Below, piece after piece: positions 20,958 through 63,719 of a DNA stretch of 64,000 nt. Made by a program: the position numbers and the translations under genes. How positions within the stretch are numbered: the first letter of the stretch is position 1; each line of letters begins with the position of its first letter. The notes under the pieces are model-generated. The model had not been told where the DNA came from. It saw nothing but the letters and a program-made list of their open reading frames with translations, and ran no database searches. The stretch is from the sequence record SRR2962707_3772; one strand, given 5' to 3'.

Positions 20958-21232
20958 GGCTTTCTCCAGAATTTTTTAATTCGTGCTTGAGTCCAAACAC
21001 AGAGATAAAGGTCATCGTTGTAAAATCAGCATTTAAATAATGAATAAGGCGTGATAAAAATCATCTGCATCATATTTATCTTTACTTGCCTGTTCGTCAA
21101 TTTTGCAAATTTAATAGGGCGTATAATTCGATTTTATGTGAATTTAAAACGCACGAGTCCCTTCTCTCATTAATTGAATTTAAAGAGTAAAAATGTATTG
21201 GTGTTTTGTTTTGTGTCTTTTTAGAAGTCTTT

Positions 21233-21940: not shown

Positions 21941-21943
21941 GCG

Positions 21944-23684: not shown

Positions 23685-23687
23685 TTT

Positions 23688-45368: not shown

Positions 45369-45607
45369 AGTCGAAGCACAAGGGGATGAGCAAGAATGAT
45401 GCATGACATCGCGATATAAAGCGTTTGCCATAAAAATAGTCATCAACGTGCTTTTTCGGCTTGAAAATCGGTTAGTATTACAATATTACGACAGAGGTTG
45501 TGTCTGCCTTTGCGGTCTTTATCACCCGTATTATTTACGTGAAAAAGTCAAAAACGAATGTGAAATTGCATAATATATCGGCTTACTCGGCGTTTTAACG
45601 CCTTATA

Positions 45608-47236: not shown

Positions 47237-47323
47237 AATGGGGCTTGGGAAGGCCAGATAGAGTGGGGTAGACACTCCCCCCAACGGATGAAAAAGTCGC
47301 CTACTTGCTCGTTATTAAGCAAC

Positions 47324-47365
47324 AAAAAAGGCCTATTCTCAATCTTGATTGGGAATAGGCCTTTT
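47324..47365. terminator. Bidirectional terminator
   Basis: AAAAAAGGCCTATTCTCAATC-tt-GATTGGGAATAGGCCTTTT. Confidence 0.7.
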
Positions 47366-47431
47366 GTCTATTTAGGATGAGAAACTATTTTAGGGTGAGA
47401 AAGTGACGGCGAACGCCGTGTCATTACTCAC

Positions 47432-48877
47432 TTATAGTGGATAATGTTGCTCTGGGTTCTCAATAGTAATCCAGCGCACATCGGTAAATTCTGAAATGCC
47501 TGCTTGGCCACCAAAGCGTCCGTAACCAGATTCACCGACACCACCAAATGGAATTTGTGGCTCGTCAGAAACAGTAGCGCCATTAATGTGGCAAATACCG
47601 CTTTCTATTGCATTAGCACAGGCTAGCGCACGGTTGATATCTTGAGAAAACACCGCTGCGGATAAACCATATTCTGTGTCATTCGCAATGCGAATGGCTT
47701 CTTCATCGCCACTGACGCGGATGATGGATTTCACCGGGCCAAAGCTTTCTTCGTTAAAAATGCGCATGGTGTCGTTCACGCCATCGAGCAAGGTTGGTGA
47801 GAAAATCGCCCCATCACTGTCGCCACCACAAACAAGGGTAGCGCCTTTGGCAACCGCATCATTAATCAAGGTGTGCATTTTTTCGCTTGCATCAGGGTTC
47901 ACCAGTGAGCCTAGCGCGACCTTGTCCCTAGGGTTGCCCCAAGTGAGTTTGGCGGCACGAGCAACCAATTTCTCGACAAATTCATCGGCAATTTTTTCGT
48001 CTACGATCAAGCGTTCCGTCGACATACAGATTTGCCCTTGATTCATAAAAGAACCAAAAATCGCCGCGTTTACCGCACCATCAATATTGGCATCAGAGAG
48101 CACAACAAGTGGTGCTTTGCCGCCTAACTCCAGCAGTGCAGGCTTTAAATTTGCGCCTGCTAAACCACCGATAATACGGCCAATAGGGCTGGAACCAGTG
48201 AAGTTTACATGGCGTACTTCAGGGGCTTCAATCAAGGCTTTTACGATTGATGGCGCGTCTTTAGGGTCGTTGGATAACACATTAATAACGCCTTCAGGGA
48301 TACCCGCTTCCAAGAAGCAATCCACGATTAGACGCTGGGTTTGTGGGCAAAGTTCGGCGCTTTTAAGGATCACGGCATTACCACAGGCGATCGGCATAGC
48401 AACCGCGCGGGTGCCTAGAATAATAGGCGCATTCCACGGCGCTATTGCTAAGCAAACCCCCCTGGCTTTGCGTACTGATAAAGACAATATGCCGGGTTTA
48501 TTAGACGGAATCACTTCCCCGCCAATCTGAGTGGTTAAAGACGCAGATTCACGCAATACATCCACCGCCAACTTAACATTAAATCCAGCCCATACCGCGG
48601 TAGCACCGGTTTCTGTCATCATGGCATCAACGAATAAGCTGAGTTTTGACTCCATGATGTCAGCCGCTTTGTTTAATAAGCTGCGTCGTGTAGCTGGGCT
48701 GCTAAGAGACCATTTTTCAAAGGCTTGTTGTGCCGCTTTTACTGTTATCTTGACGTCTTCTAGGGTGGCGGCGGCAGAGACAGACGCCACGTCACCGGTG
48801 ACCGGATCAAATCGGGTGTAGAGGTTGTTGTTCTGGGCAGAGCAGTCTTGTCCGCCAATACTTAATAAAACAGTCAT
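47432..48877 (-). CDS. vdh: Aromatic aldehyde dehydrogenase (vanillin/salicylaldehyde dehydrogenase-like)
   Basis: ETGAT..WAGFN, IAPWNAP.ILG.RA, LELGGKAP, NQGQICMSTER, GICHING.TV.DE and the WITI...QHYP terminus. Confidence 0.75.
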   Translation of the reverse strand: MTVLLSIGGQDCSAQNNNLYTRFDPVTGDVASVSAAATLEDVKITVKAAQQAFEKWSLSSPATRRSLLNKAADIMESKLSLFVDAMMTETGATAVWAGFNVKLAVDVLRESASLTTQIGGEVIPSNKPGILSLSVRKARGVCLAIAPWNAPIILGTRAVAMPIACGNAVILKSAELCPQTQRLIVDCFLEAGIPEGVINVLSNDPKDAPSIVKALIEAPEVRHVNFTGSSPIGRIIGGLAGANLKPALLELGGKAPLVVLSDANIDGAVNAAIFGSFMNQGQICMSTERLIVDEKIADEFVEKLVARAAKLTWGNPRDKVALGSLVNPDASEKMHTLINDAVAKGATLVCGGDSDGAIFSPTLLDGVNDTMRIFNEESFGPVKSIIRVSGDEEAIRIANDTEYGLSAAVFSQDINRALACANAIESGICHINGATVSDEPQIPFGGVGESGYGRFGGQAGISEFTDVRWITIENPEQHYPL

Positions 48878-48919
48878 ATTATTGTCCTTATTCACTGATT
48901 ATTCTGGTGTTACTTGAGT

Positions 48920-49705
48920 TTATAAGTTGAGTTTTTCAACCGTTTCGGCCGCCTCTAAACCACCGTCGGTTGAGATGTTATTACCATTGACCCATTTTGC
49001 GGCATCGGAGCAAAGGAACAAAATGACCGGTGCTATGTCATCTGGTGTGCCTGCGCGTCCCACTCGGTTGATGTCTTTGCTGGCTTTTTCTTCACCTAGC
49101 ACTTGACGGAATTGAGCGAGAATAGGGGTTTCTACAGGGCCTGGAGAGACGGCATTGATGCGAATGCCTTTGTCTTTAAATTGTTTTTGCTGAGAGGCAA
49201 TTTTATTCCAAACCAACAAAATTTCCTTAGAAATAGGGTAACCAAGCTGGTTTGGAATATCGAAATCTTTGATGACCTTATCGATATCAGGAAAACCATC
49301 GATACGGGCAATGGCGGACGCTCGTTCTGTGTTATCTCGCCAGCCAAATCCTGCCATGGAGGCAACGTTGATAATACTGCCGCCTGGACGCATTTTCAGT
49401 GCCGCACCTTCTGATAGGTTTTTCAAACCAAAAAAGTTAATTGCCAGTGTGATATTGGCACCCGCGATACCAGAAACACCTGCGACATTGCACAGCGCAT
49501 CGATGTTTTCTGGCAAGGCGTCAAGAATAGCTGAGACACCCGCTTGGGTCGATAGGTCGCCTTGTATAAAAGTACCAATTGTTTTTTCAGGCTTGACCAC
49601 ATCGATACCGATGACATTAGCACCCATTTCAGACGCTAATTCAGCACAACGATGAGCGATACCACTAGCAACCCCTGTAATGACGATCGTTTTTCCTGCT
49701 AACAT
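48920..49705 (-). CDS. Short-chain dehydrogenase, coniferyl-alcohol dehydrogenase (CalA)-like
   Basis: TGVASGI, DALCNVAGV, NVAS.AG..W, YPISKE and SPGPVETPIL motifs. Confidence 0.75.
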   Translation of the reverse strand: MLAGKTIVITGVASGIAHRCAELASEMGANVIGIDVVKPEKTIGTFIQGDLSTQAGVSAILDALPENIDALCNVAGVSGIAGANITLAINFFGLKNLSEGAALKMRPGGSIINVASMAGFGWRDNTERASAIARIDGFPDIDKVIKDFDIPNQLGYPISKEILLVWNKIASQQKQFKDKGIRINAVSPGPVETPILAQFRQVLGEEKASKDINRVGRAGTPDDIAPVILFLCSDAAKWVNGNNISTDGGLEAAETVEKLNL

Positions 49706-49735
49706 AATTTTTCTACCTTATTTATCAGTGGATGT

Positions 49736-50581
49736 TTACTTGTCTTTATTTTCCAATACAAGTAAGCCGTAATGTGTGTTGGAGACGGGGCAGTGTGTGA
49801 ATCGATAGACTTGTTCGACATCCTCGTCTAATGCCCCTCGCATGATGAACCACATAATGGCTTCGATCCCTTCGGATCCAGTTTCACGCAGATATTCGGT
49901 GTGACTGGTGTGTTTGATTTTTTCGGGCGCTGAGACTAAGTCATCTAACCATTGCTCGTCATAATCCGCATTAATCAAGCCGGCTCGTTCGCCTTGTAAT
50001 TGATGAGAAAGTCCGCCAGTACCGAAGACGGCTACCTTGGTGTCTTTTGGGTAGGATTCCACGGCTTTGCGAATGGCTTTGCCTAAATTAAAGCAGCGAT
50101 TTCCTGTCGGTTGAGGGTATTGAATAACATTGACGCACAGTGGGATGACCTCGCAAGGCCATTCTTCTGGCTGTCCAAACATAATAGAAAGCGGCACGGT
50201 AAGACCATGGTCAACGGGCATTTCATTAACGATGGTCATATCAAACTCATCCATGATTAATGATTCTGTAATGTGCCATGCTAGTTCAGGATTGCCTTTG
50301 ACGACGGGCACTTTGCGTGGGCCATAACCTTCATCTGCGGGTTGAAATTCGGGCGCGACACCGATGGCAAAGGTGGAAATAGATTCCAGAGAAAACGCTG
50401 AGGCATGGTCGTTAAATACCACAATACAGACATCAGGTTTGACTTCTTCGATCCATTTTTTGGCAGGTTCCATGCCGTCAAAAACAGGTTTCCAATAGGC
50501 TTCTTGCGTCTTATTATGATCAACGGCCGCACCAATGGCAGGGATATGAGAGGTGCCAACACCAGCAATGATTTTGCCCAT
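49736..50581 (-). CDS. ligB: Protocatechuate 4,5-dioxygenase-type extradiol dioxygenase, beta subunit
   Basis: Fe-ligand motifs TSHIPAIG, FNDHAS and GSEGIE.IMW; VDHG..VP and GG.SHQLQG.RAG motifs. Confidence 0.9.
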   Translation of the reverse strand: MGKIIAGVGTSHIPAIGAAVDHNKTQEAYWKPVFDGMEPAKKWIEEVKPDVCIVVFNDHASAFSLESISTFAIGVAPEFQPADEGYGPRKVPVVKGNPELAWHITESLIMDEFDMTIVNEMPVDHGLTVPLSIMFGQPEEWPCEVIPLCVNVIQYPQPTGNRCFNLGKAIRKAVESYPKDTKVAVFGTGGLSHQLQGERAGLINADYDEQWLDDLVSAPEKIKHTSHTEYLRETGSEGIEAIMWFIMRGALDEDVEQVYRFTHCPVSNTHYGLLVLENKDK

Positions 50582-50979
50582 TATTTTGTCTCCTTCTTAC
50601 TGCGGTTGCCATCGATAGAGCGACCACCAGTGATCATCATGTGTTTGAATTCTTCTTCTGTCATGCCTGAGTCAGACATGGCCGCGCCTGCCGCTTGCAT
50701 GGTCATGCCATCAAAAATAGCCAGTTTGAAGGTGTAATAGATGTTGCCGCCTAGGCGAAGCATTTCGAGCCAGTTGCGTTCTAAAAGGGCTTTTCGTTGT
50801 TCATTTGTGACTGGGAATTTTGCTAAATAAGCTTCTTCGTCTTTTCGGAATTCGTCACGATTCTCTTGCTTATTCAATGACATGCAAAACATGTTTAGGT
50901 AGTAACCCTTACGGTAATGGGTCCCGTCGAACACATAGGTTCCTGGAATGTCGTGATAGTCTCTTTCTTGGTCCGTCAT
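50581..50979 (-). CDS. ligA: Protocatechuate 4,5-dioxygenase-type extradiol dioxygenase, alpha subunit
   Basis: DIPGT.VF, KGY.LN.FCMSL, GGNIYY..KL and MMI.GGRS motifs; 1-bp overlap with ligB. Confidence 0.9.
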   Translation of the reverse strand: MTDQERDYHDIPGTYVFDGTHYRKGYYLNMFCMSLNKQENRDEFRKDEEAYLAKFPVTNEQRKALLERNWLEMLRLGGNIYYTFKLAIFDGMTMQAAGAAMSDSGMTEEEFKHMMITGGRSIDGNRSKKETK

Positions 50980-51113
50980 CACTTTTCCTCAGCTTAAGAT
51001 TGTATTTTTTATTGTTACCAGCCGTGCTAAGCCTTGAGTAAGCAAACGTCTGAGAGCGATGCCAGTATAGGAATTTGCAAAACAAGGAACAATTAGGCTA
51101 AATAGAACAAACT

Positions 51114-51129
51114 GTTCCGACTGTGGAAC
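51114..51129. promoter_or_regulatory. Probable LysR operator in the ligA/LysR divergent region
   Basis: GTTCC-GACTGT-GGAAC palindrome containing T-N11-A. Confidence 0.5.
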
Positions 51130-51147
51130 GATGGAAGGATAGAATCC

Positions 51148-52050
51148 ATGCGAGTGATGATGAATTGGAACATTGATGATATTCCCGTGTTTGTCGCTAT
51201 TGTTGACAGGATGGGGATTTCCGCGGCGGCAGACTACTTACACCTTCCTAAATCCAGTGTGAGTCGAGCCCTGAGCCGATTAGAGGAAGCGTTAGCGGTC
51301 CGCTTGATAGAGCGGAACTCAAGACGCTTACGGATTACGAGCGAAGGGTCGGCGTTTTACCGTCAATGTTTATTGATTATGGAGCAAGTCAACGAAGCCA
51401 ATGCGCTAATGGCAGGGTTAACCGCGGTGCCAAGCGGTAAGCTGGTGGTGACACTGCCAATGGCGTTTAGCCGTGAAATCGTGGTGCAGCACCTTAATAA
51501 ATTTATTCAACGTTACCCTAAAGTCACCTTAGACATCGTTATCACCAGTCATCCGGTGGATATTATTCGAGATCAGATCGACGTTGCCGTGATGATAGGG
51601 CCGTTAGACGACTCCGAATTGAGGGCTAAGCAGTTATTAAGCAGCCCATTGATCTGGGTGAGCAGTCCAGAGTATCTAGATCAGCATGCATTAGGCGTTG
51701 GCCCAGAAGCGCTTTGTGAGCACGTTAAAATTTGTGAGAAGCGTTATGGAAAAACCAAGCTGGCGATTAAATATCAGGAAAAACGTGAACACATTAACCT
51801 GAGTGACGTTATCCATATTAATGACCCCATTGCGGTTCGTGAGGCCGTGGTTCATGGCTCCGGCGTCTCGCTAATACCATCAATTTATTGCAAAAAACAG
51901 TTAAAAAGCGGCGCTTTGATCGAAGTGTATCAAGATGTTGAGCTGGAAACTTCGTCGCCGATTTTGGCGGTGTTCCCAAGTCGTCGGCTAATATCCAATA
52001 AGGTTCGGGCGTTTATTGATTTCTTAGAGCAAATAGTAGACCTAGAGTAA
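51148..52050 (+). CDS. LysR-family (CrgA-like) regulator, divergent from ligAB
   Basis: SAAADYLHLPKSSVSRALSRLEEAL.VRL.ERNSR and KVRAFIDFL motifs. Confidence 0.9.
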   Translation: MRVMMNWNIDDIPVFVAIVDRMGISAAADYLHLPKSSVSRALSRLEEALAVRLIERNSRRLRITSEGSAFYRQCLLIMEQVNEANALMAGLTAVPSGKLVVTLPMAFSREIVVQHLNKFIQRYPKVTLDIVITSHPVDIIRDQIDVAVMIGPLDDSELRAKQLLSSPLIWVSSPEYLDQHALGVGPEALCEHVKICEKRYGKTKLAIKYQEKREHINLSDVIHINDPIAVREAVVHGSGVSLIPSIYCKKQLKSGALIEVYQDVELETSSPILAVFPSRRLISNKVRAFIDFLEQIVDLE

Positions 52051-52131
52051 GCGGTGCATCGCACAACCCTGTCTTATCAGGCAGTAAGGCGAGCCAATAG
52101 GTGGCTGAATGTTCAAAATGTACAAGTTTAA

Positions 52132-53382
<1,251 letters not shown>

Positions 53383-53391
53383 CGCTTAACC

Positions 53392-54303
53392 TTATTCGCC
53401 AGTATCTAACGGCTCTTGATGCTGGCGAATAACGCTGTCTTTAAAGGCTTTCGGTGACAAGCCTGTGTGCTTTTTAAAGAAGCGCGAAAAATAACTAATG
53501 TCCTCAAAACCGAGCTGATAAGCCACTTCCGACACCGATTGAAAAGAATAAGCCAAATTCACTTTCGCCTCACTGATGACCCTGTCATGAATGATCTTTA
53601 ACGCGGATTTCCCCGTCACAGTGTGACTAATGCGATTCAAATGCGTCACCGAAATACGCAGTTGCATGGCGTATTCAGAGATGGGTTTTTTGTCCGCAAA
53701 AGAGTGACTGACCAGCTGTTGGAATTGTCGGTAATACCACAGGTTTCTGTCTTTTTCAGAAGGCCTTTGATGCGCTGAAAATACATTGTTAGCACGCATT
53801 ATTTGGCTAAATATCAAGCCCAACAAGCAGCGCATGGACACGCCTCGAGCGGGCTGACGGTTTCTGTATTCAGAGCGTAGCTGGCGAAATAAAGTGAGAA
53901 TCTCTGAGGTCGCATCTTCTTGTCCATTGCGCTCAATTACGATGGCTTTATCCAAGGATTGCAAACAGCTTTGCGAGCTTGCCAGCAAATCATTGAGGTA
54001 CTCGCGCGACACAGTGACTATGGTGCCTTCGATGTCTTTTTGCATTTCAAAACTGTGCACATCCCCAGCGGGAACGAAACAGCAGCAGGGGGTATTTAAG
54101 GGAATGAGCGCATTGTTTAAGTACATGGTGCCGGTGCCAGAGAAGAAATACACCAGATGACACAAATCATCGTGACGATGGGGTTCAATCACCCAGTCAT
54201 TTACTTCAGTGGAGCTTTTGACGCTGTCTATATGGACGGGATTCAGTGAAAAATCGACATCAAATTGTCCGTAGACTCGATAATTTGGAATGGCTTTTTG
54301 CAT
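53392..54303 (-). CDS. pobR: AraC-family regulator, PobR-like
   Basis: IPNYRVYG, PHRH cupin and C-terminal EVAYQLGFEDISYFSRFFKK; adjacent to pobA. Confidence 0.7.
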   Translation of the reverse strand: MQKAIPNYRVYGQFDVDFSLNPVHIDSVKSSTEVNDWVIEPHRHDDLCHLVYFFSGTGTMYLNNALIPLNTPCCCFVPAGDVHSFEMQKDIEGTIVTVSREYLNDLLASSQSCLQSLDKAIVIERNGQEDATSEILTLFRQLRSEYRNRQPARGVSMRCLLGLIFSQIMRANNVFSAHQRPSEKDRNLWYYRQFQQLVSHSFADKKPISEYAMQLRISVTHLNRISHTVTGKSALKIIHDRVISEAKVNLAYSFQSVSEVAYQLGFEDISYFSRFFKKHTGLSPKAFKDSVIRQHQEPLDTGE

Positions 54304-54411
54304 GCTATGTCTCACCAAATGAATGAAAGGTAAGCGCTCAGAGACCTCGTTCACCATGATAACAGAATGCGTAACTAGAGCATCTTGATGAACGAGGCTG
54401 CACTGGGCTGA

Positions 54412-55896
54412 TTACAATAAGCCTCCTTCAGACGCTGAGATGGAATGCATTTCCTGAAACGCGATAATGCCTTCATAGCCTAAATTTCGGCCCACGCCAC
54501 TGTGTTTATGTCCGCCGAATGGGGCGCGACTGTCTTGCGCTAATGGCCCGTGATTGTTTAGGTAGGTGTAGCCAGCTTCGAGACGTCGAGCAAGGCGCAA
54601 TGCCTGATCTCGATCCTCTGTCCAGACGGAGGAGCATAAACCGAACTCCGAATCATTGGCGAAGTGGATGGCCTCATCGACGGAATCGAAAGGGATGATC
54701 GGCAGCACAGGACCAAATTGCTCTTCTTTGACCACGCGTAAATTAAGGTGTGGATTGAGCACTAGAGTTGGTTTTTGAAAGTAACCTTCTGCGTACAAGG
54801 CCGTGTCTGGCACCTGACCAAGCTCCAACACATCACAGCCAGATTGTTTGGCTTCGGCTATCATGCTGGTGACAATCCCAAGCTGCTTTTTATTGTTCAG
54901 TGGGCCCATGGTGGTCGTGGCTAGGGTGCCATCGCCGATGACCTGAGCAGAGGCCATTTGAGTGAGCCCTGTTACCACTTCGTCATAGCGTGAACGATGA
55001 ACATAAAGGCGTTTTAAAGCCATACAAATTTGCCCAGAAGACATGAAAGCGGCGAGGTACATGCGTTTAAACGCCGCGTCATCTAATTTAGCGTCAGCGA
55101 GGACAATGCCCGCATCGTTGCCGCCAAGCTCTAACGTAACAGGCACCAGATTATCGGCGGCGACTTTCATCACATGCTTACCGACCGCTACGCTGCCGGT
55201 AAAGTTTATTGTGCGTATCGCTGGGTGAGATAACAAGGCATCGCCGATATTGGCCGATGACCCAGTTAGCAAGTTGATTACCCCAGGCGGTAGCATTTCG
55301 GCCATGAGTCCCACGGTCAGTGCGGTGACCAAGGCCGATTCTTTTGACGGTTTGACCACCACGCAATTGCCCGCGATCAGAGCTTGGGGCAATTTGGCGC
55401 CAAGAATGGAGATGGGCCAGTTCCAAGGCACCACGAGCGCTGCCACGCCGCGAGCTTGTCGCGTGATGATGGTGTCATAGTGTGGGCCAGATAATGTTTC
55501 GTCTTGGCTTAAGCGCTCTGCGTAAGAGGCCACTTGGCGAAAACGATCACTAATGCGCGATATTTCGATATGAGCTTCATGCAAGATTTTACCGTGTTCA
55601 CGAGTAAAGAGCCGCGCACGAGCTTGCAGCTCTTCTGGGTTATTCACCAAGTGATCAGCAATATTGAGTAGGTATTGGGCTCGTTCTTGGTAGGATAAAG
55701 CCGACCATGCTGGCATTGCATCGCGGGCTGCATTGCAGGCTAAATCCACATCCGCCACGGTGGCGCTGGCCGCGTACCCGACTAATTCACTTGGGCGCGC
55801 GGGGTTATATTGCGGGTAGGTTTCACCCGATACGGCATTTTGATATTGGCCATTAATATAGAGTTGTGTGGTTACAGTATTATGGTTGATTGGCAT
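54412..55896 (-). CDS. Aldehyde dehydrogenase family protein
   Basis: VPWNWP, FTGS, TLELGGND, SSGQICMA, EEQFGP and PFGG.K.SG motifs. Confidence 0.88.
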   Translation of the reverse strand: MPINHNTVTTQLYINGQYQNAVSGETYPQYNPARPSELVGYAASATVADVDLACNAARDAMPAWSALSYQERAQYLLNIADHLVNNPEELQARARLFTREHGKILHEAHIEISRISDRFRQVASYAERLSQDETLSGPHYDTIITRQARGVAALVVPWNWPISILGAKLPQALIAGNCVVVKPSKESALVTALTVGLMAEMLPPGVINLLTGSSANIGDALLSHPAIRTINFTGSVAVGKHVMKVAADNLVPVTLELGGNDAGIVLADAKLDDAAFKRMYLAAFMSSGQICMALKRLYVHRSRYDEVVTGLTQMASAQVIGDGTLATTTMGPLNNKKQLGIVTSMIAEAKQSGCDVLELGQVPDTALYAEGYFQKPTLVLNPHLNLRVVKEEQFGPVLPIIPFDSVDEAIHFANDSEFGLCSSVWTEDRDQALRLARRLEAGYTYLNNHGPLAQDSRAPFGGHKHSGVGRNLGYEGIIAFQEMHSISASEGGLL

Positions 55897-55976
55897 GCTT
55901 ATCACCTTCGATCAATTTTTATTTTTAGTGGATATCGGCGAGTATCTAGGGAAAAGAAGGCGCTTCCTTCCCTTAT

Positions 55977-56007
55977 TCCCTGTTTGCCAAATCATGGCGA
56001 ACAGGGA
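55977..56007. other. Intergenic stem-loop between the OsmC-like and ALDH genes
   Basis: TCCCTGTTTGCCA-aatca-TGGCGAACAGGGA. Confidence 0.45.
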
Positions 56008-56048
56008 GGATGACCATTCGTTATTTGACGCATTAACCGTTTGGCAAA

Positions 56049-57245
56049 TTAATACCCTGACAAGCGGATTTTTGTTTTAAGGTCCGCTTTACAAAAGGCG
56101 TGTAAAAAACAGGTTTGTTCAGAAACGTCGAGAATCGTTTTAGCAAACTCATCGTCTTCGCTGCTTTCTAAATAAACATGAGTTTCCAGCGGATCCGCTT
56201 TTCCGACTTCACCAGTCCCACCAGAGGCGCCGCCTAGGGTGAAATGAGAATCTTGCAAAATGCGGTAATCCGTCAAGTTTTTGCGCTTCATCTTCGCATA
56301 GCGACCAAACTGAGTCATAAAGCAAAAGCCAATGCCTGCGGACATATACGAGGTGGCGTCCGGCGCTCGCCCTAAACCACCGTTTTCTTCTCCTTCTTCT
56401 GATAATAGGGTGAAAACGGATCCGTGTGGGTTGTATAAATGTTGGACGATTTCTTTTATGCCATCAGGGCGTAATGTGCAAATGCCGCGTAGGTGAAGTA
56501 GGCGATCTTGATGATCGGTTAAGCTAGAGCTGGCGCCATGCAAGGAGTTTTCATGTTTGGGTGTTAATCCTCCTTTTACGCAAAGATCTTCCCAGTTGCC
56601 GGTGGCGGGCTCGGCGAGATCCATTTTGACCGCTGGGTCGGTTTCGACGGGTTTGCCCAGCGGTTGTGCTTTTTCTGGTGCCAGTTCGTTACCGTTGTGG
56701 CTAAGGGTAAATAGGCTCTCATGATGGCCGCGCATGAGACCATTAAGAGGGGAGGCTGCGGTGGCGTCCATGAGCAGCCTTGTTAGGGTATTGCGGTCAG
56801 CATCTGAGTCAATCTGTGCTTCTAAATCCACATCGTAGGCGTTGGCGATCATGGTGCCGCGGGCCAGGCTGCCTTTCATGCTGTAATAATTGTCTTGGAT
56901 TAGGCGAATCTTGTTGATCTTGATATTACGCAACTTGGCCAGCGCTAAAATCTCATTCATGTAAGAGGCAATCATGCCCACCGTTAGAAAACATAATGGC
57001 GCGGGGGCACAATCAGTGCCGTCCAAATAAGCGCCTTCATCACTGGCAAGACGCCAAGTGGTGCCTGTTCGAGCGGAGGTCACGAGGGCTTCTTTTTGAA
57101 ACACAGTTAGTGAGCGAACCGCGGTTCGTAAATCTTCTCCTAAACGGGCTTTGGGCGCACTCATGCCTGCCGCCGCCGCGTTATCTACCTTGTAAAAAAG
57201 CGGCTTGCCACTGTCGATTAATTTGTTTTCTGCAGTCTTGTTCAT
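56049..57245 (-). CDS. Protein with two tandem OsmC/Ohr-like domains, function unknown
   Basis: Repeat 1 LASDEG.YL.GTD.APAP...GMIASYM...AASP; repeat 2 LSEEG....G.G.APD...AGIGFCFMTQ...EQTCF; likely start ATG 57245. Confidence 0.65.
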   Translation of the reverse strand: MNKTAENKLIDSGKPLFYKVDNAAAAGMSAPKARLGEDLRTAVRSLTVFQKEALVTSARTGTTWRLASDEGAYLDGTDCAPAPLCFLTVGMIASYMNEILALAKLRNIKINKIRLIQDNYYSMKGSLARGTMIANAYDVDLEAQIDSDADRNTLTRLLMDATAASPLNGLMRGHHESLFTLSHNGNELAPEKAQPLGKPVETDPAVKMDLAEPATGNWEDLCVKGGLTPKHENSLHGASSSLTDHQDRLLHLRGICTLRPDGIKEIVQHLYNPHGSVFTLLSEEGEENGGLGRAPDATSYMSAGIGFCFMTQFGRYAKMKRKNLTDYRILQDSHFTLGGASGGTGEVGKADPLETHVYLESSEDDEFAKTILDVSEQTCFLHAFCKADLKTKIRLSGY

Positions 57246-57455
57246 CGTTATACCTATCGCTCTGTGTTTCATGGTGCGAAGTGAATCATTAAGAACGAGG
57301 CGTATGAGGCTGTTCTGTATGGCTTCAATTCTTCTTTCATTGGCTTGGCGCATGGCCCTTGTTGTGCAAAGTGGACCTTGGTTTTTATCGTGAACCTCAT
57401 TGCGCTTGAAGCCGATAAAAACACACAATAAAGCGCTCTGTCAAATAAATGAACC

Positions 57456-57476
57456 AAGGTTCACTATGTGAACCTT
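57456..57476. promoter_or_regulatory. Perfect palindrome, probable IclR operator
   Basis: AAGGTTCAC-TAT-GTGAACCTT between the divergent OsmC-like and IclR genes. Confidence 0.7.
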
Positions 57477-57631
57477 TGGCTTGATTCCTTCTTTATGCAC
57501 ACCGCCTTTTGGTGGCCGTTTTAAAGGCGCTAGCGACCTTGTCGTGTGCTGTTTGTGGTGTGGTAAAACATTTGAGTTTGCCTATCTCAGGCCGCATAAT
57601 GAACCAACGTTGAAGCTGACATAGAGCAAAA

Positions 57632-58486
57632 ATGAAACAGATAGAAAAGGATGGACTCACTGTCGATACCAGTGTGAAAGGGGCGGCTAGCGGAGTGCAA
57701 TCATTGGCTCGTGGCTTAAAAGTATTAGCGGCTGTGAATGAGTTCACCCCCGCGACTGTCACGCAAATAGTGGCCAGTACTGGGTTTCCTAAGGCGACGG
57801 TAATTCGGTTATTAAAAACGCTGAAAAACGAAGGTTATATCGATTTAAACCCAGAAGCGGGTGGCTATAAAACATTACCAAAAGTCAGGTTACTGGCCAG
57901 CTCGATGATTTCAGACAATAGTTTTGCTGTATCTGCTCGCCAATTTCTAAACGATTTTGCGCAAATACTAAAATGGCCAAGTGATTTACTGATCGCAGAG
58001 GGCTCATCCATGGTGGTTCAGGCCTCAAATCGAGATACGGCGCCGATCCACATAAAACGCTTTGAGCAAGGTCGTTTTTCTCTGTTGTTATCAGCAAGTG
58101 GTATTGCGTATCTTTCTGCGCTTCCAGCCAAAAAACGACAAGAGGTCGTGAAGGCGACGGTCAAGCTTCAACCCTCGTCGGAGGATCTTGAGCTGCTGAC
58201 CGAGAAAGTCATGCAAGAGATTGCACACTGCCAACAAAATGGCTTTGCTGTGACCGATTATCACGCGCCGATTGAAGGCACCAGAGCTGTTGCGATTCCA
58301 CTGCTGTATGAGGGCGAGCCATTTGGGGCGTTAGCGATGTTGTTTATTCGAGACGCGGTCAGTGATGAGCAATTACAGACCTTTTTATTGCCCCAATTAC
58401 GTGACGCGGCGGGTGCTGTGGCGCGTTTATACCAGCAACATGGCGCTGGTATGACATTGACACCAGTGCCTCACGAGGAGGCATGA
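57632..58486 (+). CDS. IclR-family (MhpR-like) regulator
   Basis: VQSLARGLKVL...TGFPKATVIRLLKTL..EGY and SASG.AYL motifs. Confidence 0.88.
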   Translation: MKQIEKDGLTVDTSVKGAASGVQSLARGLKVLAAVNEFTPATVTQIVASTGFPKATVIRLLKTLKNEGYIDLNPEAGGYKTLPKVRLLASSMISDNSFAVSARQFLNDFAQILKWPSDLLIAEGSSMVVQASNRDTAPIHIKRFEQGRFSLLLSASGIAYLSALPAKKRQEVVKATVKLQPSSEDLELLTEKVMQEIAHCQQNGFAVTDYHAPIEGTRAVAIPLLYEGEPFGALAMLFIRDAVSDEQLQTFLLPQLRDAAGAVARLYQQHGAGMTLTPVPHEEA

Positions 58487-59394
58487 TCGACTTGTTGGGC
58501 CGTGGCGGACCAGCGTTCTAGCAGAATGTTAATAAACAAATCCGCCGCTGGTGACAAGGACGTAGAGCTGCGTTTGACGAGACCAATAGAGCGGTCGATT
58601 TGTTGGTCTTTCAGTGGTCGGTAGGTGAGTGCCGAGGTACTGCTAAGTGGCATTGCCAGTTTTGGAACAATGGATATGCCTAAGCCCATTTCTACCAGCC
58701 CCAGTGAGGTAGACAGGTGCTGCACTTCATAAAAACTATTCAATTGCACTTGGTCTTTGGCCAGAGATTTATCCAGCAAAATTCGGTTACCACTGGCCCT
58801 TCCTACACTGATCAGTTTATAAGGTTCCATGTCGGTCCAAGACACTTCTGTTAATTTGCAAAGCGGGTGATCTTTTCTCAAACAGACCACAAAAGGGTCA
58901 TCCAGTAATTGCGTAAAGGTGACTTCAGGGTGCTGAGCAATGGCCATGTTAATGCCAAAATCCGCGTCGCCTCGAATCACAGATTCCAAACCATGGTTTG
59001 CGCTTTCATCGAGGATCTGGATGCGAATTCCAGGGTATCTTTCATTAAAAACAGTGATAACGCTTGGTAAGAAGTAAAACGCTGCGGTTGGAATACAGGC
59101 AATGGTGACCTTACCTTTTTGCTGAGAGGCCATGTCTTTAATGCCTAAAACAGACAATTCAAACTCTTCAACCATGCGCCTTGCTTTGGGCAAGAACTCC
59201 CTTCCGACTGAGGTTAGCCAGGTTTTTCTCGTGGTTCTTTCAAAGAGTTGAGCCCCTAGTATCCCTTCTAATTTTTGCATTCTGCGGCTGAGAGCCGGTT
59301 GGGATAAAAAGGTCAATTCGGCGGCATCGTGAAAGTTTCCAGTTTCTGCGATACGAATAAAAATAACCAAGTCTTTAAATTCTATTTGATGCAT
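58471..59394 (-). CDS. LysR-family regulator (YbhD-like)
   Basis: LSQPALSRRMQKLE...LFERTTR, IACIPTAAFYFLP and YEVQHLSTSLGLVE.GLG motifs. Confidence 0.9.
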   Translation of the reverse strand: MHQIEFKDLVIFIRIAETGNFHDAAELTFLSQPALSRRMQKLEGILGAQLFERTTRKTWLTSVGREFLPKARRMVEEFELSVLGIKDMASQQKGKVTIACIPTAAFYFLPSVITVFNERYPGIRIQILDESANHGLESVIRGDADFGINMAIAQHPEVTFTQLLDDPFVVCLRKDHPLCKLTEVSWTDMEPYKLISVGRASGNRILLDKSLAKDQVQLNSFYEVQHLSTSLGLVEMGLGISIVPKLAMPLSSTSALTYRPLKDQQIDRSIGLVKRSSTSLSPAADLFINILLERWSATAQQVDHASS

Positions 59395-59419
59395 GAGGGT
59401 CTCTATTAATTCGTTTTAC

Positions 59420-59452
59420 GCATCAACTATGCATTATTTTTGCATTTGATGC
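59420..59452. promoter_or_regulatory. Nested inverted repeat, probable LysR binding region
   Basis: GCATCAA-ct-ATGCA-N7-TGCAT-TTGATGC. Confidence 0.55.
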
Positions 59453-59511
59453 ACTAATCAATCTTGTGACATTGTAATAGAAGGTACTCAATAACAATAA
59501 GGTTTATTCAC

Positions 59512-60573
59512 ATGTCGCAAACCCTATCCTGCATGATTATGCGTGGTGGCACTTCTCGAGGCCCCTATTTGCAAATCGCTGATCTGCCTCAAGACAGAGA
59601 AGCCTGCGCAGAAGTTTTATTAAAAGTTATGGGATCTGGGCATGAGCTACAATTAGATGGCATTGGTGGTGGCAATAGTTTAACCAGTAAGGTTGCTATG
59701 GTTGGTCCTTCTACTCATCCGGATGCCGATGTTGACTATCTGTTTGCCCAAGTGGGTATTCTCGAAAAGAAAGTCGACTTCTCTCCAAATTGCGGAAACA
59801 TGCTTTCAGGCGTAGCACCTTATGCCATTGAAACGGGCTTGTTTCCAGCGGCTCAAGGCAAAACAACAGTACGCATCCATAATTTGAATACCGGCAAGAT
59901 TATCCATGCCACCGTGTTAACCCCAAATGGTCAGGTTCAGTATGACGGGGACACCATCATTAGTGGTACAAACTCACCAGGTGCACCTATCGAGTTAACC
60001 TTCCTTAACGTAGAAGGCTCGAAAACAGGTAAGTTGTTACCAACAGGTAAGTTGATCAATGTTATTGATTCTATTGAAGTAACTTGTCTTGATGCGGCAA
60101 CACCAGTGGTTTTAATCAATGCACAAGATCTTAATAAAACCGGCAGTGAGTCACCGGCTGAATTAGACAGTGACATTGAATTTATGGCGCGCTTAGAAAA
60201 TATTCGTTTGCAAGCGGGTGAGTTAATGGGCATGGGAGATGTATCAAATTCTGTCATTCCGAAGCCGATTTTAGTGTCACCAGCGTTGCATGGCGGCACG
60301 ATCACCGCACGCTATTTTGTGCCGCATAAATGCCATAAAGCATTGGCAGTAACCGGCAGTATCGCCATTGTGACCGCGTGTTGCACACCGGGTACTGTGG
60401 CATCAAAACTGATCGATGCTCAGGAAGCGAGCTCGGTTTTTGTATTGGAACACCCATCTGGCACGATTGAATTGAGCGCCAGACGCAAAGAAAACGACCC
60501 ATCTGCCTTGGACAGTGTGTCGCTAATCCGTACTGCGAAGAAAATATTATTAGGCAATATCTATCTTAGCTAA
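59512..60573 (+). CDS. PrpF/DapF-fold isomerase, 4-oxalomesaconate tautomerase (GalD/LigU/YbhH)-like
   Basis: MRGGTSRG, QLDGIGGGNSLTSKV, NCGNM.SGV, TCLDAA.P, CHKALAVTG and EHPSG motifs. Confidence 0.85.
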   Translation: MSQTLSCMIMRGGTSRGPYLQIADLPQDREACAEVLLKVMGSGHELQLDGIGGGNSLTSKVAMVGPSTHPDADVDYLFAQVGILEKKVDFSPNCGNMLSGVAPYAIETGLFPAAQGKTTVRIHNLNTGKIIHATVLTPNGQVQYDGDTIISGTNSPGAPIELTFLNVEGSKTGKLLPTGKLINVIDSIEVTCLDAATPVVLINAQDLNKTGSESPAELDSDIEFMARLENIRLQAGELMGMGDVSNSVIPKPILVSPALHGGTITARYFVPHKCHKALAVTGSIAIVTACCTPGTVASKLIDAQEASSVFVLEHPSGTIELSARRKENDPSALDSVSLIRTAKKILLGNIYLS

Positions 60574-60636
60574 TCGCTTTTGGTGCGTTCTTATCGAGCG
60601 CATTAATAAACTATAAAAACAAGAAAGGAAGATAAC

Positions 60637-61719
60637 ATGAAAAAAATACTCAACTTAGTCTGTGCGTCTGCATTGTCTATCAGCTGTGTACTTGCGTTGC
60701 CTGCGCAAGCAAAAGAAGCCGATGTGCCATCGACAATTAACTGGACGGTACCCTTTGGGGTTGGTGGCGGTACTGATGTGTGGGCGCGATTTATTGCTCC
60801 TTACCTAACAAAGTACATTCCAAGCAATCCGACTGTGGTTATCCGTAACCAACCAGGTGGCGGCTCCATTACCGGCGCAAACTTGTTTTACAAGCGTGCC
60901 AAAGACGATGGCAGCACCATGCTAGCGACGTCGGCATCGACCTTGTTCCCATATATGTTGGGTGACAAACGAGTGCGTTATAACTTCGATAAATGGGTGC
61001 CATTAATGGCAAGCCCAACGGGTGGTGTGGTTTACGTACAGCCAGGTTTGGGTGTGAAATCAGCCGCGGATATCGATAAATTAGATGGCATGACGCTACC
61101 GTTTGGTTCACAAGGACCAACACGTCTTGAATTGCCTGTCTTGATCGCCTTCGAAATGCTGGGTTTGGACGTGAAACCTGTGTTCGGTATGAAAAGCCGT
61201 GGTGCGGGTCGTTTGGCGTTTGAACGTGGCGAAGCGAAAATTGACTTCCAAACAACGTCTGCTTACTTAAACTCAGTGGTTGATCTAGTAAACAATGACA
61301 AAGCGATTCCATTGTTTTCTCTAGGTGTTATGAATAAAGAGGGTAAAGTAGTACGTGATCCTGCGTTCCCTGATCTACCCACTTTTCAAGAAGTGTATGC
61401 TCAGAAATTTGGCAAACAACCTTCTGGTATAGAGTATTCGGCTTACTCTAAATTCTTTGCAGCGGGCTTCGCTTTCCAAAAAATGATCTTTATCCCATCT
61501 GACACACCAACAAATGTGATCAATGAATACCGTAATGCTGTTCAAACTATGTTGAAAGACCCTAAATTCATTGAAGATGCCGCGGTTCAAGTGGGACCTT
61601 ACCAAAGCATTGTAGGCATTGATGCAGCACAGCACATTCAAGAGGCTCTTACAGTATCTCCTGAACTTTATACTTGGATTTCAGGCTGGTTAAAAAAGAA
61701 ATTTGATTACACCCTGTAA
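60637..61719 (+). CDS. Tripartite tricarboxylate transporter substrate-binding protein (TctC/Bug-like)
   Basis: Signal peptide; VPFGVGGGTDVWAR, N.PGGG and RLAFERGE motifs. Confidence 0.85.
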   Translation: MKKILNLVCASALSISCVLALPAQAKEADVPSTINWTVPFGVGGGTDVWARFIAPYLTKYIPSNPTVVIRNQPGGGSITGANLFYKRAKDDGSTMLATSASTLFPYMLGDKRVRYNFDKWVPLMASPTGGVVYVQPGLGVKSAADIDKLDGMTLPFGSQGPTRLELPVLIAFEMLGLDVKPVFGMKSRGAGRLAFERGEAKIDFQTTSAYLNSVVDLVNNDKAIPLFSLGVMNKEGKVVRDPAFPDLPTFQEVYAQKFGKQPSGIEYSAYSKFFAAGFAFQKMIFIPSDTPTNVINEYRNAVQTMLKDPKFIEDAAVQVGPYQSIVGIDAAQHIQEALTVSPELYTWISGWLKKKFDYTL

Positions 61720-61751
61720 GTAGTTTGTTGTTTTATATTTAGGAGTTATTC

Positions 61752-63719
61752 ATGGCTGTGCTTCTTAGTGCTCTAGACCAAATATTATCGTTAACGCACC
61801 TAGTCTATTTGGTGGGTGGCGTATTGGTCGGTCTTGTTGTTGGTATTATTCCTGGACTTGGCGGCATTGCCGGCATGTCCTTGCTACTACCGTTTTTATA
61901 TGGAATGGAGCCTTCAGTTGGTCTTGGTATGCTGATGGGGTTGGTTGCTGTGATTCCCACAGGTGATACTTTCACCTCTGTGTTAATGGGGATACCAGGA
62001 TCCAGTTCTTCGCAAGCCACAGTCATGGATGGTTTTCCATTGGCGAAAAAAGGCCAGGCAGCACGCGCGCTGTCTGCGGCTTTTTTATGCTCAATGATTG
62101 GCGGTGTGGTTGGTGCGATTGTACTGAGTGTCTTCATTTTGGTGGCACGACCTGTGGTACTCGCATTCTCATCTGCTGAATTGTTTATGCTGACTTTATT
62201 AGGCCTGAGTGTGGTTGCGGCCTTATCCGGCGGGAATTTATTTAAAGGCTTAGCCGCTTGTGGTTTTGGCCTATTAATTGGTTCTGTTGGCTCGGCGCCT
62301 GCCACTGGTGAGTTCCGTTTTACCCTAGGCATTGATTACTTGTATGACGGTATTCCATTGGTTGTCGTGGGTTTGGGTATCTTTGCGCTACCAGAAATCA
62401 TCAGCTTATTGGTGCAAAACAAAGCCATTGCTTCTACGCCAAATAAATTAGGTCATGGTTTAAAACAGGGTTTCAAAGACGTGTTTGCCAACTTGCCTTT
62501 GGTCGGTAAATCGTCTGTATTTGGTAGCTTGATCGGTGCGATTCCTGGTTTAGGTGGTTCGGTTGTTGACTGGATGACATACAGTTTCGCGATGAATGGC
62601 AGTAAAGACACGTCCCAGTTTGGTAAAGGGGACATTCGTGGTGTTATTGCGCCTGAGTCTGCGAATAACGCTTGTGCTTCAGGTAGTATGATTCCAACCT
62701 TGTTGTTTGGTATTCCAGGCTCGGGTTCGGCTGCGGTTTTTCTAGGTGGTATGTTATTGCTGGGTCTTCAGCCTGGTGTTTCCATGATCACCACGAACTT
62801 AGACCTGACTTACACTATTATTTGGTCTTTGGCGTTGGCGAACATTTTAGGGGCGATCTTTTGTATTGCTTTTACGCGACCTATTTCACTATTAACCTAT
62901 GTGAAATTTTCAATACTTGCGCCGATTATCTTAACCTTGATCTTGTTTGCTGCGTATCAAGCAACGCGCAGTCTAGGTGATTTCATGGTGCTGGGTGTCA
63001 TTGCAACAATTGGTGTGATGATGAAAGGGGCCAACTGGCCACGTCCTGCTTTCTTGATTGGTTTTGTGCTTTCTTCTGGCGCTGAAAACTACTTTTTCCA
63101 AAGCATTCAGTTTTACGGTAGCTCTTGGTTTCTACGCCCTGGTGTAATTGCACTGGCTGCCTTGATTGTATTGGGCTTTGTATTACCTCCAATGCTGAAG
63201 AAAAGAAGAGCGGCAAAAGCCAGCACGCAGCCTAAAACCGGTCTAGAGCCAGAAGAGCCTAGTGTTAAAACGGTGTCGGCGACGGATTGGGTATTGTTAG
63301 CGGTATTGGGTGCATCCGGCTTATACGCTTTGGTTGATGTATGGAATATGTCGACCTTGACGAAAGCTTTCCCAATTATTTCTATTGCCATTGTGTTGTT
63401 CTCTGTGGCGATGCTGATTGTGAAATTTATCCGAGAAAAACATCAGCGAGTGGCGTCTAACTTAAGAACAGACCTTGTGTACATTGTTGGCTTCTTTATG
63501 ATTGCTTACGGTTATTACACGCTGGGATTTGTCACCACGACCTTTGTCTTCTCGTTCTTGTTCTTGCGTTATTTGGCGAAGGCGACGTATTTAAAATCGT
63601 CTACCATTGCCGTTTGCTTGGTGATCTTCCTCGTGGTTTTAGGTCGCATCATGAACATAGAATACCCAGAAGGCTACTTTGACCCCTATTTCTTTGATGT
63701 GGTTAATCGTTTTTTCTAA
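61752..63719 (+). CDS. Tripartite tricarboxylate transporter large permease TctA with C-terminal TctB-like extension
   Basis: GIIPGLGG, GIPG...SQAT..DG.PLAKKG, APESANNA, IPTLLFGIPGS and RPA..IGFVL motifs, then extra TM helices. Confidence 0.85.
   Translation: MAVLLSALDQILSLTHLVYLVGGVLVGLVVGIIPGLGGIAGMSLLLPFLYGMEPSVGLGMLMGLVAVIPTGDTFTSVLMGIPGSSSSQATVMDGFPLAKKGQAARALSAAFLCSMIGGVVGAIVLSVFILVARPVVLAFSSAELFMLTLLGLSVVAALSGGNLFKGLAACGFGLLIGSVGSAPATGEFRFTLGIDYLYDGIPLVVVGLGIFALPEIISLLVQNKAIASTPNKLGHGLKQGFKDVFANLPLVGKSSVFGSLIGAIPGLGGSVVDWMTYSFAMNGSKDTSQFGKGDIRGVIAPESANNACASGSMIPTLLFGIPGSGSAAVFLGGMLLLGLQPGVSMITTNLDLTYTIIWSLALANILGAIFCIAFTRPISLLTYVKFSILAPIILTLILFAAYQATRSLGDFMVLGVIATIGVMMKGANWPRPAFLIGFVLSSGAENYFFQSIQFYGSSWFLRPGVIALAALIVLGFVLPPMLKKRRAAKASTQPKTGLEPEEPSVKTVSATDWVLLAVLGASGLYALVDVWNMSTLTKAFPIISIAIVLFSVAMLIVKFIREKHQRVASNLRTDLVYIVGFFMIAYGYYTLGFVTTTFVFSFLFLRYLAKATYLKSSTIAVCLVIFLVVLGRIMNIEYPEGYFDPYFFDVVNRFF

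Follow-up and report, generated by a model that had tools for sequence, protein, structure and literature searches.

A stretch of 64,000 nucleotides from sequence record SRR2962707_3772 (hereafter the window) contains a region of 13,142 bases (47432..60573) that encodes a variant of the flavoprotein monooxygenase PobA, designated PobA*, next to a LigAB-type ring-cleavage dioxygenase. In our preferred reading, to which we assign a probability of roughly 0.55, this region is an accessory aromatic funnel, in which a PobA* of dual specificity and a LigAB of the protocatechuate (PCA) type feed the canonical pathway, possibly with a side branch through gallate. Substrates, direction of flux and gallate formation are what we infer in this scheme. 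As gene families and gene order suggest, a short-chain dehydrogenase/reductase (SDR) and an aldehyde dehydrogenase (ALDH1) would convert an aryl alcohol via the aldehyde to an acid of the 4-hydroxybenzoate (4-HB) type. PobA* would hydroxylate this acid and the LigAB, which resembles that of SYK-6, would open the ring, the later steps being left to a set of ligC, ligI, ligU, ligJ and ligK genes elsewhere in the nearest genome. Part of the flux could pass from gallate via LigAB to oxalomesaconate (OMA) and then through a tautomerase, LigJ and LigK, skipping LigC and LigI in parallel to the normal route. Such a branch from gallate to OMA is chemically and genetically possible, but not needed. All statements about genes elsewhere in the genome refer to G001, the nearest genome, and not to the window's own assembly. 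G001 has 76% of sampled 31-mers in common with the window, matches it at 99% over the 13,142-base region and carries a completeness rating of 100%. The genes named in a first-pass annotation of this DNA were all borne out at their positions by the list of open reading frames (ORFs) and by family-profile scores.

A natural PobA clade with Val199 and Phe385

The pobA* gene lies on the plus strand (ORF 52141..53382, core from 52210). Its product scores 611.1 bits against the TIGR02360 equivalog model (cut-off 538.7) and is 62% identical to P0069, a PobA of the Pseudomonas aeruginosa group. The carboxylate-binding residues Ser212, Arg214 and Tyr222 are retained as in the P. aeruginosa enzyme (PaPobA), and so are Tyr201, Pro293 and Thr294. 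Leu199 and Tyr385 of the proton relay are replaced. Phe385, which the first-pass annotation had recognized, was confirmed by structure-sequence alignment (AENFVGL, where wild-type Pseudomonas PobA has Tyr385); a second exchange, Val199 (DEVVY vs HELIY in the wild type), had been missed. The best PDB matches of PobA*, 6JU1 and 1PXC (~537 bits), both show Phe at position 385 in the alignment. We take these two entries to be Y385F mutants, although the search output does not name them so.

To place the variant within its family, the 120 best matches in a collection of 5.8 billion proteins were used as homolog set. Residues 199-201-385 read L-Y-Y in 100 of these, V/I-Y-F in 18, V-W-F (with Met210) in one and V-Y-Y in one. 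In a FastTree phylogeny of 122 sequences, the Phe385 proteins and the V-W-F and V-Y-Y oddities formed one clade of 21 tips with a support of 1.0, 20 of them carrying Phe385. Eighteen alignment positions separate this clade from canonical PobA (16 besides 199 and 385), and the clade residue at 199, like that at 385, was found in 0 of 101 canonical sequences. Outside the clade, Leu199 and Tyr385 were present in 79 of 79 sequences from titled genomes and in 38 of 38 sequences sampled from the genus and the order, and all 80 metagenome-contig pobA loci among the matches listed had Leu199, Tyr201 and Tyr385; the 79-, 80- and 38-sequence sets may overlap. Clade members with a named source come from Marinomonas pollencensis (93% identity), a Colwellia sp. 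(80%), Paraglaciecola chathamensis, P. polaris, Exilibacterium tricleocarpae and Pseudomonas akapageensis, the others being metagenome proteins. Carriers of pobA* are scarce: within the genus, two of 64 species genomes have the gene (G001 and G028), an order-level sample of 401 genomes contains the same two, and 401 genomes sampled from the family of the Colwellia genome contain one. Judged from sequence, the variant PobA is a rare and patchy natural clade and no stray mutation. No description of it was returned by literature searches on PobA Y385F and gallate, protocatechuate hydroxylase, Phe385, and Marinomonas with protocatechuate or gallate.

Both exchanged positions have been studied by mutagenesis. 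The first natural PCA 5-hydroxylases to be reported belong to Burkholderiales (Katsuki et al. 2023, PMC10770758). These clade F PobAs share less than 47% identity with PaPobA and carry Val199, Trp201, Met210 and Phe385. In earlier engineering work summarized in that paper, PaPobA Y385F hydroxylated PCA faster than the wild type, and the double mutant L199V/Y385F exceeded wild-type PCA hydroxylation 30-fold. For the clade F enzyme XaPobA, the V199L exchange was reported to lower PCA hydroxylase activity while 4-HB hydroxylase activity was kept, and F385Y lowered PCA hydroxylase activity and switched the preference to 4-HB. XaPobA W201Y, which recreates the V199/Y201/F385 signature of the window protein, had a kcat of 8.1 s-1 on PCA and 0.79 s-1 on 4-HB, with kcat/Km values of 16 mM-1 s-1 for PCA vs 11 mM-1 s-1 for 4-HB (PMC10770758). 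For PCA hydroxylase in bacteria, the authors state that its physiological role is unknown, and they propose a protective, antioxidant function. The main text of that paper, supplements excluded, makes no mention of Marinomonas, Colwellia, Gammaproteobacteria or vanillate.

PobA* resembles engineered PaPobA L199V/Y385F in presenting Val199 and Phe385 on a like scaffold, with Tyr201, Ser212, Arg214 and Tyr222 kept. It differs in that it is natural, its residues being fixed in the 21-tip clade and accompanied by the 16 further clade-specific positions. With XaPobA and clade F (structures 8JQO, 8JQP and 8JQQ) PobA* shares Val199, Phe385, the conserved carboxylate-binding residues and natural origin, but clade F has Trp201, Met210, Ile75 and Met72 where PobA* has Tyr201, Leu210, Phe75 and His72. 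Moreover, PobA* scores 322-325 bits to the XaPobA structures vs ~537 to PaPobA, and the hosts differ, being marine Gammaproteobacteria for the PobA* clade and Burkholderiales for clade F. By identity, bit scores and residues, PobA* would be placed outside clade F. One metagenome protein, P0018 (63% identity to PobA*), carries the XaPobA signature V199/W201/M210/F385, yet sits inside the gammaproteobacterial F385 clade, where its exact position is weakly supported (0.158). This implies either two origins of the W201/M210 state or a link between clade F and the F385 clade. By analogy with the mutagenesis of the two PobA scaffolds, we predict that PobA* is dual-specific, converting 4-HB to PCA and PCA to gallate.

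A protocatechuate-type LigAB and the canonical pathway

The ligB gene (49736..50581, minus strand) encodes the catalytic beta subunit of a class III extradiol dioxygenase of the SYK-6 LigAB type (PF02900, 249.9 bits; NF009903, 447.9 vs a cut-off of 317), and ligA (50581..50982, minus strand) encodes the alpha subunit (PF07746, 117.5 bits; TIGR02792, 133.9 vs 108.6). The pair has the make-up of a LigAB, with separate alpha and beta subunits that pass the LigA and LigB model cut-offs. Window LigB scores 385.7 bits to SYK-6 LigB (1B4U_B) vs 271.5 to the gallate dioxygenase DesB, and window LigA scores 104.8 bits to 1B4U_A. In scores and in its two separate subunits the enzyme is therefore like SYK-6 LigAB (1B4U/1BOU); it differs in having Met in place of alpha-Phe103 and in its gene context, as an SDR and an aromatic aldehyde dehydrogenase follow instead of ligC, and in the window it does not lie in a lig/pmd cluster together with ligC and ligI. 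The properties of a gallate dioxygenase (GalA/DesB) were not found: two genes (281 and 133 aa) are present and no fusion of ~420 aa, and the NF009904 score is 343.7 vs 412. G001 possesses just two LigB homologs, both of ~280 aa, and the one on its contig C3 scores 285.4 bits to SYK-6 LigB vs 236.8 to DesB. In Pseudomonas putida KT2440, gallate is degraded by GalA, GalD, GalB and GalC. The gallate branch considered here shares the logic of that pathway, from gallate to oxalomesaconate and on to tautomerase, hydratase and aldolase, but there is no fused GalA/DesB-type dioxygenase here and the hydratase of G001 is of the LigJ type. Fused GalA/DesB-like frames of ~420 aa occur in six species of the genus, and none in G001.

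In the SYK-6 alpha subunit, Phe103 reportedly acts as the gate for the C5 substituent (PMC10094722). Window LigA has Met at this position, and so do the LigA proteins from the canonical clusters of G001, Colwellia and the sister species G006. Since Met is common to these proteins, the residue is not diagnostic of specialization, and it was rejected as a marker of gallate adaptation. A third LigAB type was observed in about 20 species of the genus, its LigB being 57-61% identical to window LigB. In the five loci examined (G044, G037, G032, G033 and G007), the LigA of this type has Val at the Phe103 position, a residue reported to favour larger C5 substituents; SDR and aldehyde dehydrogenase genes are nearby in two of the five.

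The first-pass annotation had started from the premise that LigAB-type enzymes cleave gallate to OMA. This is backed by work on Novosphingobium aromaticivorans, in which LigAB and LigAB2 are reported to convert gallate to OMA, PCA to 4-carboxy-2-hydroxymuconate semialdehyde (CHMS), and 3-methylgallate to 4-carboxy-2-hydroxy-6-methoxy-6-oxohexa-2,4-dienoate (CHMOD) and 2-pyrone-4,6-dicarboxylate (PDC), with differing preferences (Perez et al. 2021, PMC8091115). The likeness to that organism is one of gene content, with two two-subunit paralogs per genome. By its nearest relatives, the window LigAB is of the ordinary PCA 4,5-dioxygenase type.

The annotation had further noted that the window lacks the genes for the lower pathway. 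This holds: a scan of 50 window ORFs found no GFO_IDH_MocA, Amidohydro_2 or RraA-like protein, these being the families to which LigC, LigI and LigJ (both Amidohydro_2) and LigK were assigned, respectively. From this absence it had proposed that LigC and LigI are bypassed. G001, however, carries ligC, ligI and the rest of the canonical set, so that the premise of the bypass fails; the presence of ligC and ligI elsewhere in the genome is the first half of what the annotation itself had named as contrary evidence. On contig C3 of G001, a single strand bears ligJ, ligK, ligU, ligI and a second ligA and ligB. LigJ is encoded by an Amidohydro_2 gene (476 bits to the OMA hydratase 2GWG), as is LigI (355 bits to the PDC hydrolase 4D8L); LigK scores 348 bits against TIGR02798 (cut-off 304.5), and LigU, a second OMA tautomerase, 523.8 bits against NF033377. 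The ligC candidate is a 315-aa Gfo/Idh/MocA gene about 9 kb from this cluster, behind a PcaQ-like LysR gene. It shares 66% identity with the gene following ligJ-ligA-ligB on plasmid pBSY17_1 of Sphingobium sp. RAC03 and 77% with a gene adjoining the lig cluster on an Azospirillum plasmid, and from synteny in these two plasmids it is taken to be ligC. At the genome level, a complete PCA 4,5-cleavage set (ligC, ligI, ligU, ligJ and ligK) is hence found in G001. A canonical second PobA (L199/Y385; HELIY, QYVGL), 56% identical to window PobA*, is encoded on contig C2. In G006, pobA-AraC-ligC-ligJ-ligK-ligU-ligI-ligB-ligA occupy one locus. An intradiol dioxygenase domain was found in none of G001, G028 and the Colwellia genome G065, and PCA is therefore presumably degraded by 4,5-cleavage in all three. 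What stands of the gallate route as first proposed is its chemistry, which agrees with the PobA residues and the activity class of LigAB; the replacement of LigC and LigI does not stand. A gallate branch is plausible as a side route, not as a substitute for these enzymes.

The genomic context of the pobA* clade was compared in three genomes, G001, G028 and G065. G065 has a single gene of the LigB family, which is of the window type (LigB 64%, LigA 68% identity). It belongs to a canonical cluster of the order ligA-ligB-ligI-ligC, beside which lie ligU, ligK and ligJ, and no ligAB lies within 10 kb of pobA* in this genome. Matches above the TIGR02360 cut-off number two each in G001 and G028 and one in G065, namely pobA*. 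As PobA* is the sole PobA of G065 beside a complete lig pathway, it is probably still a 4-HB hydroxylase, and where it is the only PobA the F385 enzyme most likely serves in this capacity.

The tautomerase module and neighbouring genes

The tautomerase gene (59512..60573, plus strand) starts about 6 kb beyond pobA* and encodes a paralog of the PrpF-superfamily oxalomesaconate tautomerases, which passes the NF033377 equivalog cut-off (485.4 vs 440; PF04303, 373.5). It is 43% identical to LigU of G001 contig C3; the G028 copy is 41% identical to the same LigU (tblastn). Divergent from it is a LysR regulator gene (58471..59394, minus strand), and downstream follow genes for a TctC-like binding protein (60637..61719, plus strand; PF03401 match below cut-off) and a fused TctA/TctB permease of a tripartite tricarboxylate-type transporter (61752..63719, plus strand; PF01970, 398.4 bits). 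Of the 64 species in the genus, 15 more have an ortholog of the window tautomerase (80-83% identity), and none of these 15 carries the variant pobA or the window-type ligB; at an identity of at least 80%, the module is present in 17 of the 64 species genomes. In eight of eight loci examined from species without pobA*, the LysR gene (92-95%), the TctC gene (69-80%) and the start of TctAB (90-95% identity) are kept. The tautomerase is near ligAB solely in G001 and G028, and its conserved partners are LysR and TctC/TctAB. LysR, tautomerase, TctC and TctAB are thus a four-gene module native to the genus, and because this module is intact in species without pobA*, the tautomerase probably stands outside the ligAB/pobA unit. 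The tautomerase had been put forward as the next step of the pathway; its family identity was confirmed, but the link to ligAB and pobA is weakened by the 15 species in which the module occurs without pobA*. By family, the enzyme could isomerise OMA of any source. Its neighbourhood argues for an imported tricarboxylate-like substrate over the product of this ligAB, and its pairing with a tricarboxylate-type transporter suggests that an unsaturated tricarboxylate is taken up. A simple insertion model was also examined: beyond the LysR gene, the flank in G030 and G050 showed no synteny with the window's left flank.

On the minus strand, ligA, ligB, the SDR gene and the ALDH1 gene form a tight run, in which ligA and ligB overlap by 1 nt and gaps of 30 nt and 24 nt separate ligB from the SDR gene and the latter from ALDH1. 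The run probably ends at a hairpin (47326..47365, no strand) with an 18-bp perfect stem flanked by A and T runs, situated between ALDH1 and a convergent GGDEF gene; this hairpin is likely a bidirectional terminator of the ligA-ligB-SDR-ALDH1 operon. It was the sole long stem in a terminator scan of the window. Overall, 22 terminator-like sites were observed vs 16.0 +/- 4.3 in shuffled sequence, and 13 promoter-like sites, fewer than the 18.8 expected from shuffles.

ALDH1 (47432..48895, minus strand; PF00171, 496.9 bits) is an aromatic aldehyde dehydrogenase of the vanillin/salicylaldehyde/4-hydroxybenzaldehyde group. Its PDB matches are the salicylaldehyde dehydrogenase 6QHN (560 bits), the vanillin dehydrogenase 9IHB (541) and NahF (4JZ6, 514), and the label Vdh given to it before fits this range of aromatic-aldehyde dehydrogenase matches (514-560 bits). 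A role of ALDH1 as a dehydrogenase from CHMS to OMA, which would be another way around LigC and LigI, was rejected on account of these best matches. The SDR (48920..49705, minus strand) belongs to the 'coniferyl-alcohol dehydrogenase' subfamily (NF009092, 317.9 bits vs a cut-off of 242) and gave no PDB match at E <= 1e-25; it is presumed to be an aryl-alcohol dehydrogenase. It was dropped as a LigC substitute, since a member of the same subfamily (44% identity) is encoded near pobA* in Colwellia, where no ligAB is nearby. In the whole genomes of G001, G028 and G065, neither a VanA_C domain nor a GCV_T frame of LigM/DesA size was found. These demethylase families were not found though G001 and G028 carry a vanillin-dehydrogenase-like aldehyde dehydrogenase and the three genomes have 'coniferyl-alcohol dehydrogenase' SDRs.

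Between ligA and pobA* lies a gene for a LysR regulator (51148..52050, plus strand; PF03466, PF00126), divergent from ligAB and upstream of pobA*. Convergent with pobA* is a gene for an HpaA-like regulator of the AraC family (53392..54357, minus strand), followed by genes for a second aldehyde dehydrogenase, ALDH2 (54412..55905, minus strand), an OsmC-domain fusion (56049..57428, minus strand) and an IclR-family regulator (57632..58486, plus strand). ALDH2 had generic matches only, the nearest models being phenylacetaldehyde and aminobutyraldehyde dehydrogenases. For the N-terminal ~330 aa of the OsmC fusion, which are uncharacterised, no Pfam, PDB or Atlas family was found beyond OsmC, and the Atlas clusters holding the protein are named just 'putative OsmC family protein'. 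Between Marinomonas and Colwellia, no partner of pobA* is better conserved than the OsmC fusions of 400-460 aa (71-79% identity).

In G028, the layout ALDH1-SDR-ligB-ligA / LysR-pobA* / AraC / LysR / tautomerase-TctC-TctAB is kept at 80-98% identity (ALDH1 92%, the LysR gene upstream of pobA* 91%, AraC 80%), while ALDH2, the OsmC fusion and IclR are missing at that place. The pobA* locus of Colwellia G065 includes ALDH2 (75%), AraC (56%), IclR (64%), an SDR (44%) and two OsmC fusions (71% and 79%; L020 14325-15539 and 18379-19593). In this one genome, AhpF and AhpC genes (L020 5260-7555) precede the ALDH2-pobA* pair by 0.3-4 kb, and together with the OsmC fusions they lend the locus an oxidative-stress flavour.

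Two further gene rows were seen in the window. On the minus strand (19230-24689), genes for a thiamine pyrophosphate-dependent enzyme, an aldolase of the HpcH/HpaI family and a DctPQM TRAP transporter are arranged in series, possibly another small acid-catabolic unit that is unconnected with pobA* and ligAB. On the plus strand (32841-36861), genes for a cytosine/purine-type permease, an S-Me-THD-like protein and a hydantoinase/oxoprolinase-family protein follow each other, with a divergent LysR gene.

Competing explanations and meaning of the PobA* clade

The funnel with a dual-specificity PobA* has to be weighed against several other explanations. The region might be a plain duplicate, that is, a horizontally acquired second funnel in which PobA* is a 4-HB 3-hydroxylase, V199 and F385 are tolerated lineage changes, and all flux passes through LigC and LigI without gallate being formed. 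This we consider unlikely, though not to be dismissed lightly. PobA* is the sole PobA of Colwellia G065, where it occurs beside a canonical lig pathway; it passes the TIGR02360 cut-off with Tyr201 and the carboxylate-binding residues kept, the window LigAB is of the PCA type and a canonical lower pathway is present. Such an account is at odds with the occurrence of F385 and V/I199 across the whole clade and in no canonical sequence examined outside it, and with the reported shift of preference toward PCA caused by positions 199 and 385 in both tested scaffolds (PMC10770758). Likewise, both Marinomonas genomes with PobA* retain a canonical PobA, which suggests that the two are not redundant. 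An obligate bypass as first noted, in which 4-HB is converted via PCA and gallate to OMA in place of LigC and LigI with the tautomerase as dedicated next step, is in our view the least probable of all. It could draw on the lack of ligC, ligI, ligJ and ligK in the window, the V199/F385 PobA, a tautomerase above its cut-off and the compact ligAB-pobA*-tautomerase layout of G028, but it has to contend with ligC, ligI, ligU, ligJ, ligK, a second ligAB and a canonical pobA in G001 and with a tautomerase module that is kept in 15 further species without pobA*.

PobA* might also act on another 3-substituted 4-hydroxybenzoate, for example on vanillate to give 5-hydroxyvanillate (3-O-methylgallate), which LigAB would convert to CHMOD and PDC, followed by LigI. 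In favour of this are the vanillin dehydrogenase match of ALDH1 (541 bits) and the assignment of the SDR to the 'coniferyl-alcohol dehydrogenase' subfamily, but ALDH1 matches salicylaldehyde dehydrogenases equally well. Similarly, the lack of a VanA_C domain and of a LigM/DesA-sized GCV_T frame in the three genomes would agree with a demethylase-free route, while two demethylase types not being found leaves other types possible. LigAB enzymes are reported to turn 3-methylgallate into CHMOD and PDC (PMC8091115), and V199 and F385 line the pocket for the 3-substituent in XaPobA, for which the main text of PMC10770758 does not have vanillate among the substrates tested. Acceptance of a 3-methoxy group by a PobA-type enzyme was not found in the literature examined, and we regard vanillate as an improbable substrate. 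A bolder variant holds that vanillate is the true substrate of PobA* and would allow the use of guaiacyl aromatics without an O-demethylase. Finally, PobA* could make gallate, or another catechol or pyrogallol, for protection or metal handling and not for catabolism. The authors of the XaPobA study suggest antioxidant protection for clade F enzymes (PMC10770758), OsmC fusions are the best-conserved pobA* partners (71-79%), and AhpC and AhpF are encoded upstream in Colwellia. The AhpCF adjacency is confined to one genome, however, and the Marinomonas pobA* has a catabolic look, with a ring-cleavage dioxygenase, aryl-aldehyde dehydrogenases and LysR/AraC regulators beside it. We consider a protective role very improbable.

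Several observations weigh against an accessory funnel with a gallate branch. Window LigAB is nearest to the PCA-preferring SYK-6 enzyme and its Colwellia ortholog is the dioxygenase of the canonical pathway; given this likeness, the role of the ortholog and the shared Met, nothing in the sequence marks window LigAB as adapted to gallate. The canonical lig genes were seen in G001 instead of the window's own assembly. In Colwellia, pobA* and ligAB are about 3 Mb apart, and the two are adjacent in just two closely related species. The predicted specificity of PobA* rests on two residues and clade membership. Conversion of PCA to gallate would also cost NADPH and forgo the reducing equivalent gained by LigC, with no obvious selective gain, as we reason, when LigC and LigI are present. 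Furthermore, the start of the gene is altered in the window. In G001, G028 and database proteins, pobA* begins with an ATG preceded by GGAG, giving MKT[I/L]KTKV. In the window (52141-52215), the 9-nt unit GAAGACAAT occurs once and not twice, and the ATG preceded by this ribosome binding site is absent; ATA follows GGAG, and the closest in-frame ATG lies at 52177. Consequently, pobA* may be poorly made in this strain, or the form may be an assembly artefact. A metagenome contig that is ~99.3% identical over 45000-63549 has the two-copy form of the repeat, and run X4 contains both start alleles (2.4 of 4.7 depth). The RNA libraries X2 and X3 yielded short contigs of low depth over ligB, pobA*, AraC, IclR, the OsmC fusion, LysR and the Tct genes; these are too sparse to judge expression, and such libraries can contain DNA.

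Because the nearest genome has both ligC and ligI, the finding concerns one enzyme clade and not a new pathway that replaces LigC and LigI. We tentatively propose, as a possibility about which we remain doubtful, that the V/I199-Y201-F385 clade, which seems to be distinct from clade F, represents a second lineage of natural protocatechuate 5-hydroxylases, and that Marinomonas uses it together with LigAB in a catabolic gallate shunt. To our knowledge, the sole natural PCA hydroxylases are the clade F proteins of Burkholderiales. Microbial production of gallic acid relies on PobA mutants that hydroxylate protocatechuate. If the proposal is true, the F385 clade has reached the same two pocket changes that engineers put into PaPobA, and a natural V199/F385 clade on a PaPobA-like scaffold would supply ready-made PCA-hydroxylating catalysts and would serve as an evolutionary test of the engineered solution. 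Natural PCA hydroxylases would then also gain a physiological role, in the conversion of 4-HB via PCA and gallate to oxalomesaconate, and Marinomonas, with pobA* beside a ring-cleaving dioxygenase, would be a tractable system in which to address the role of such enzymes.

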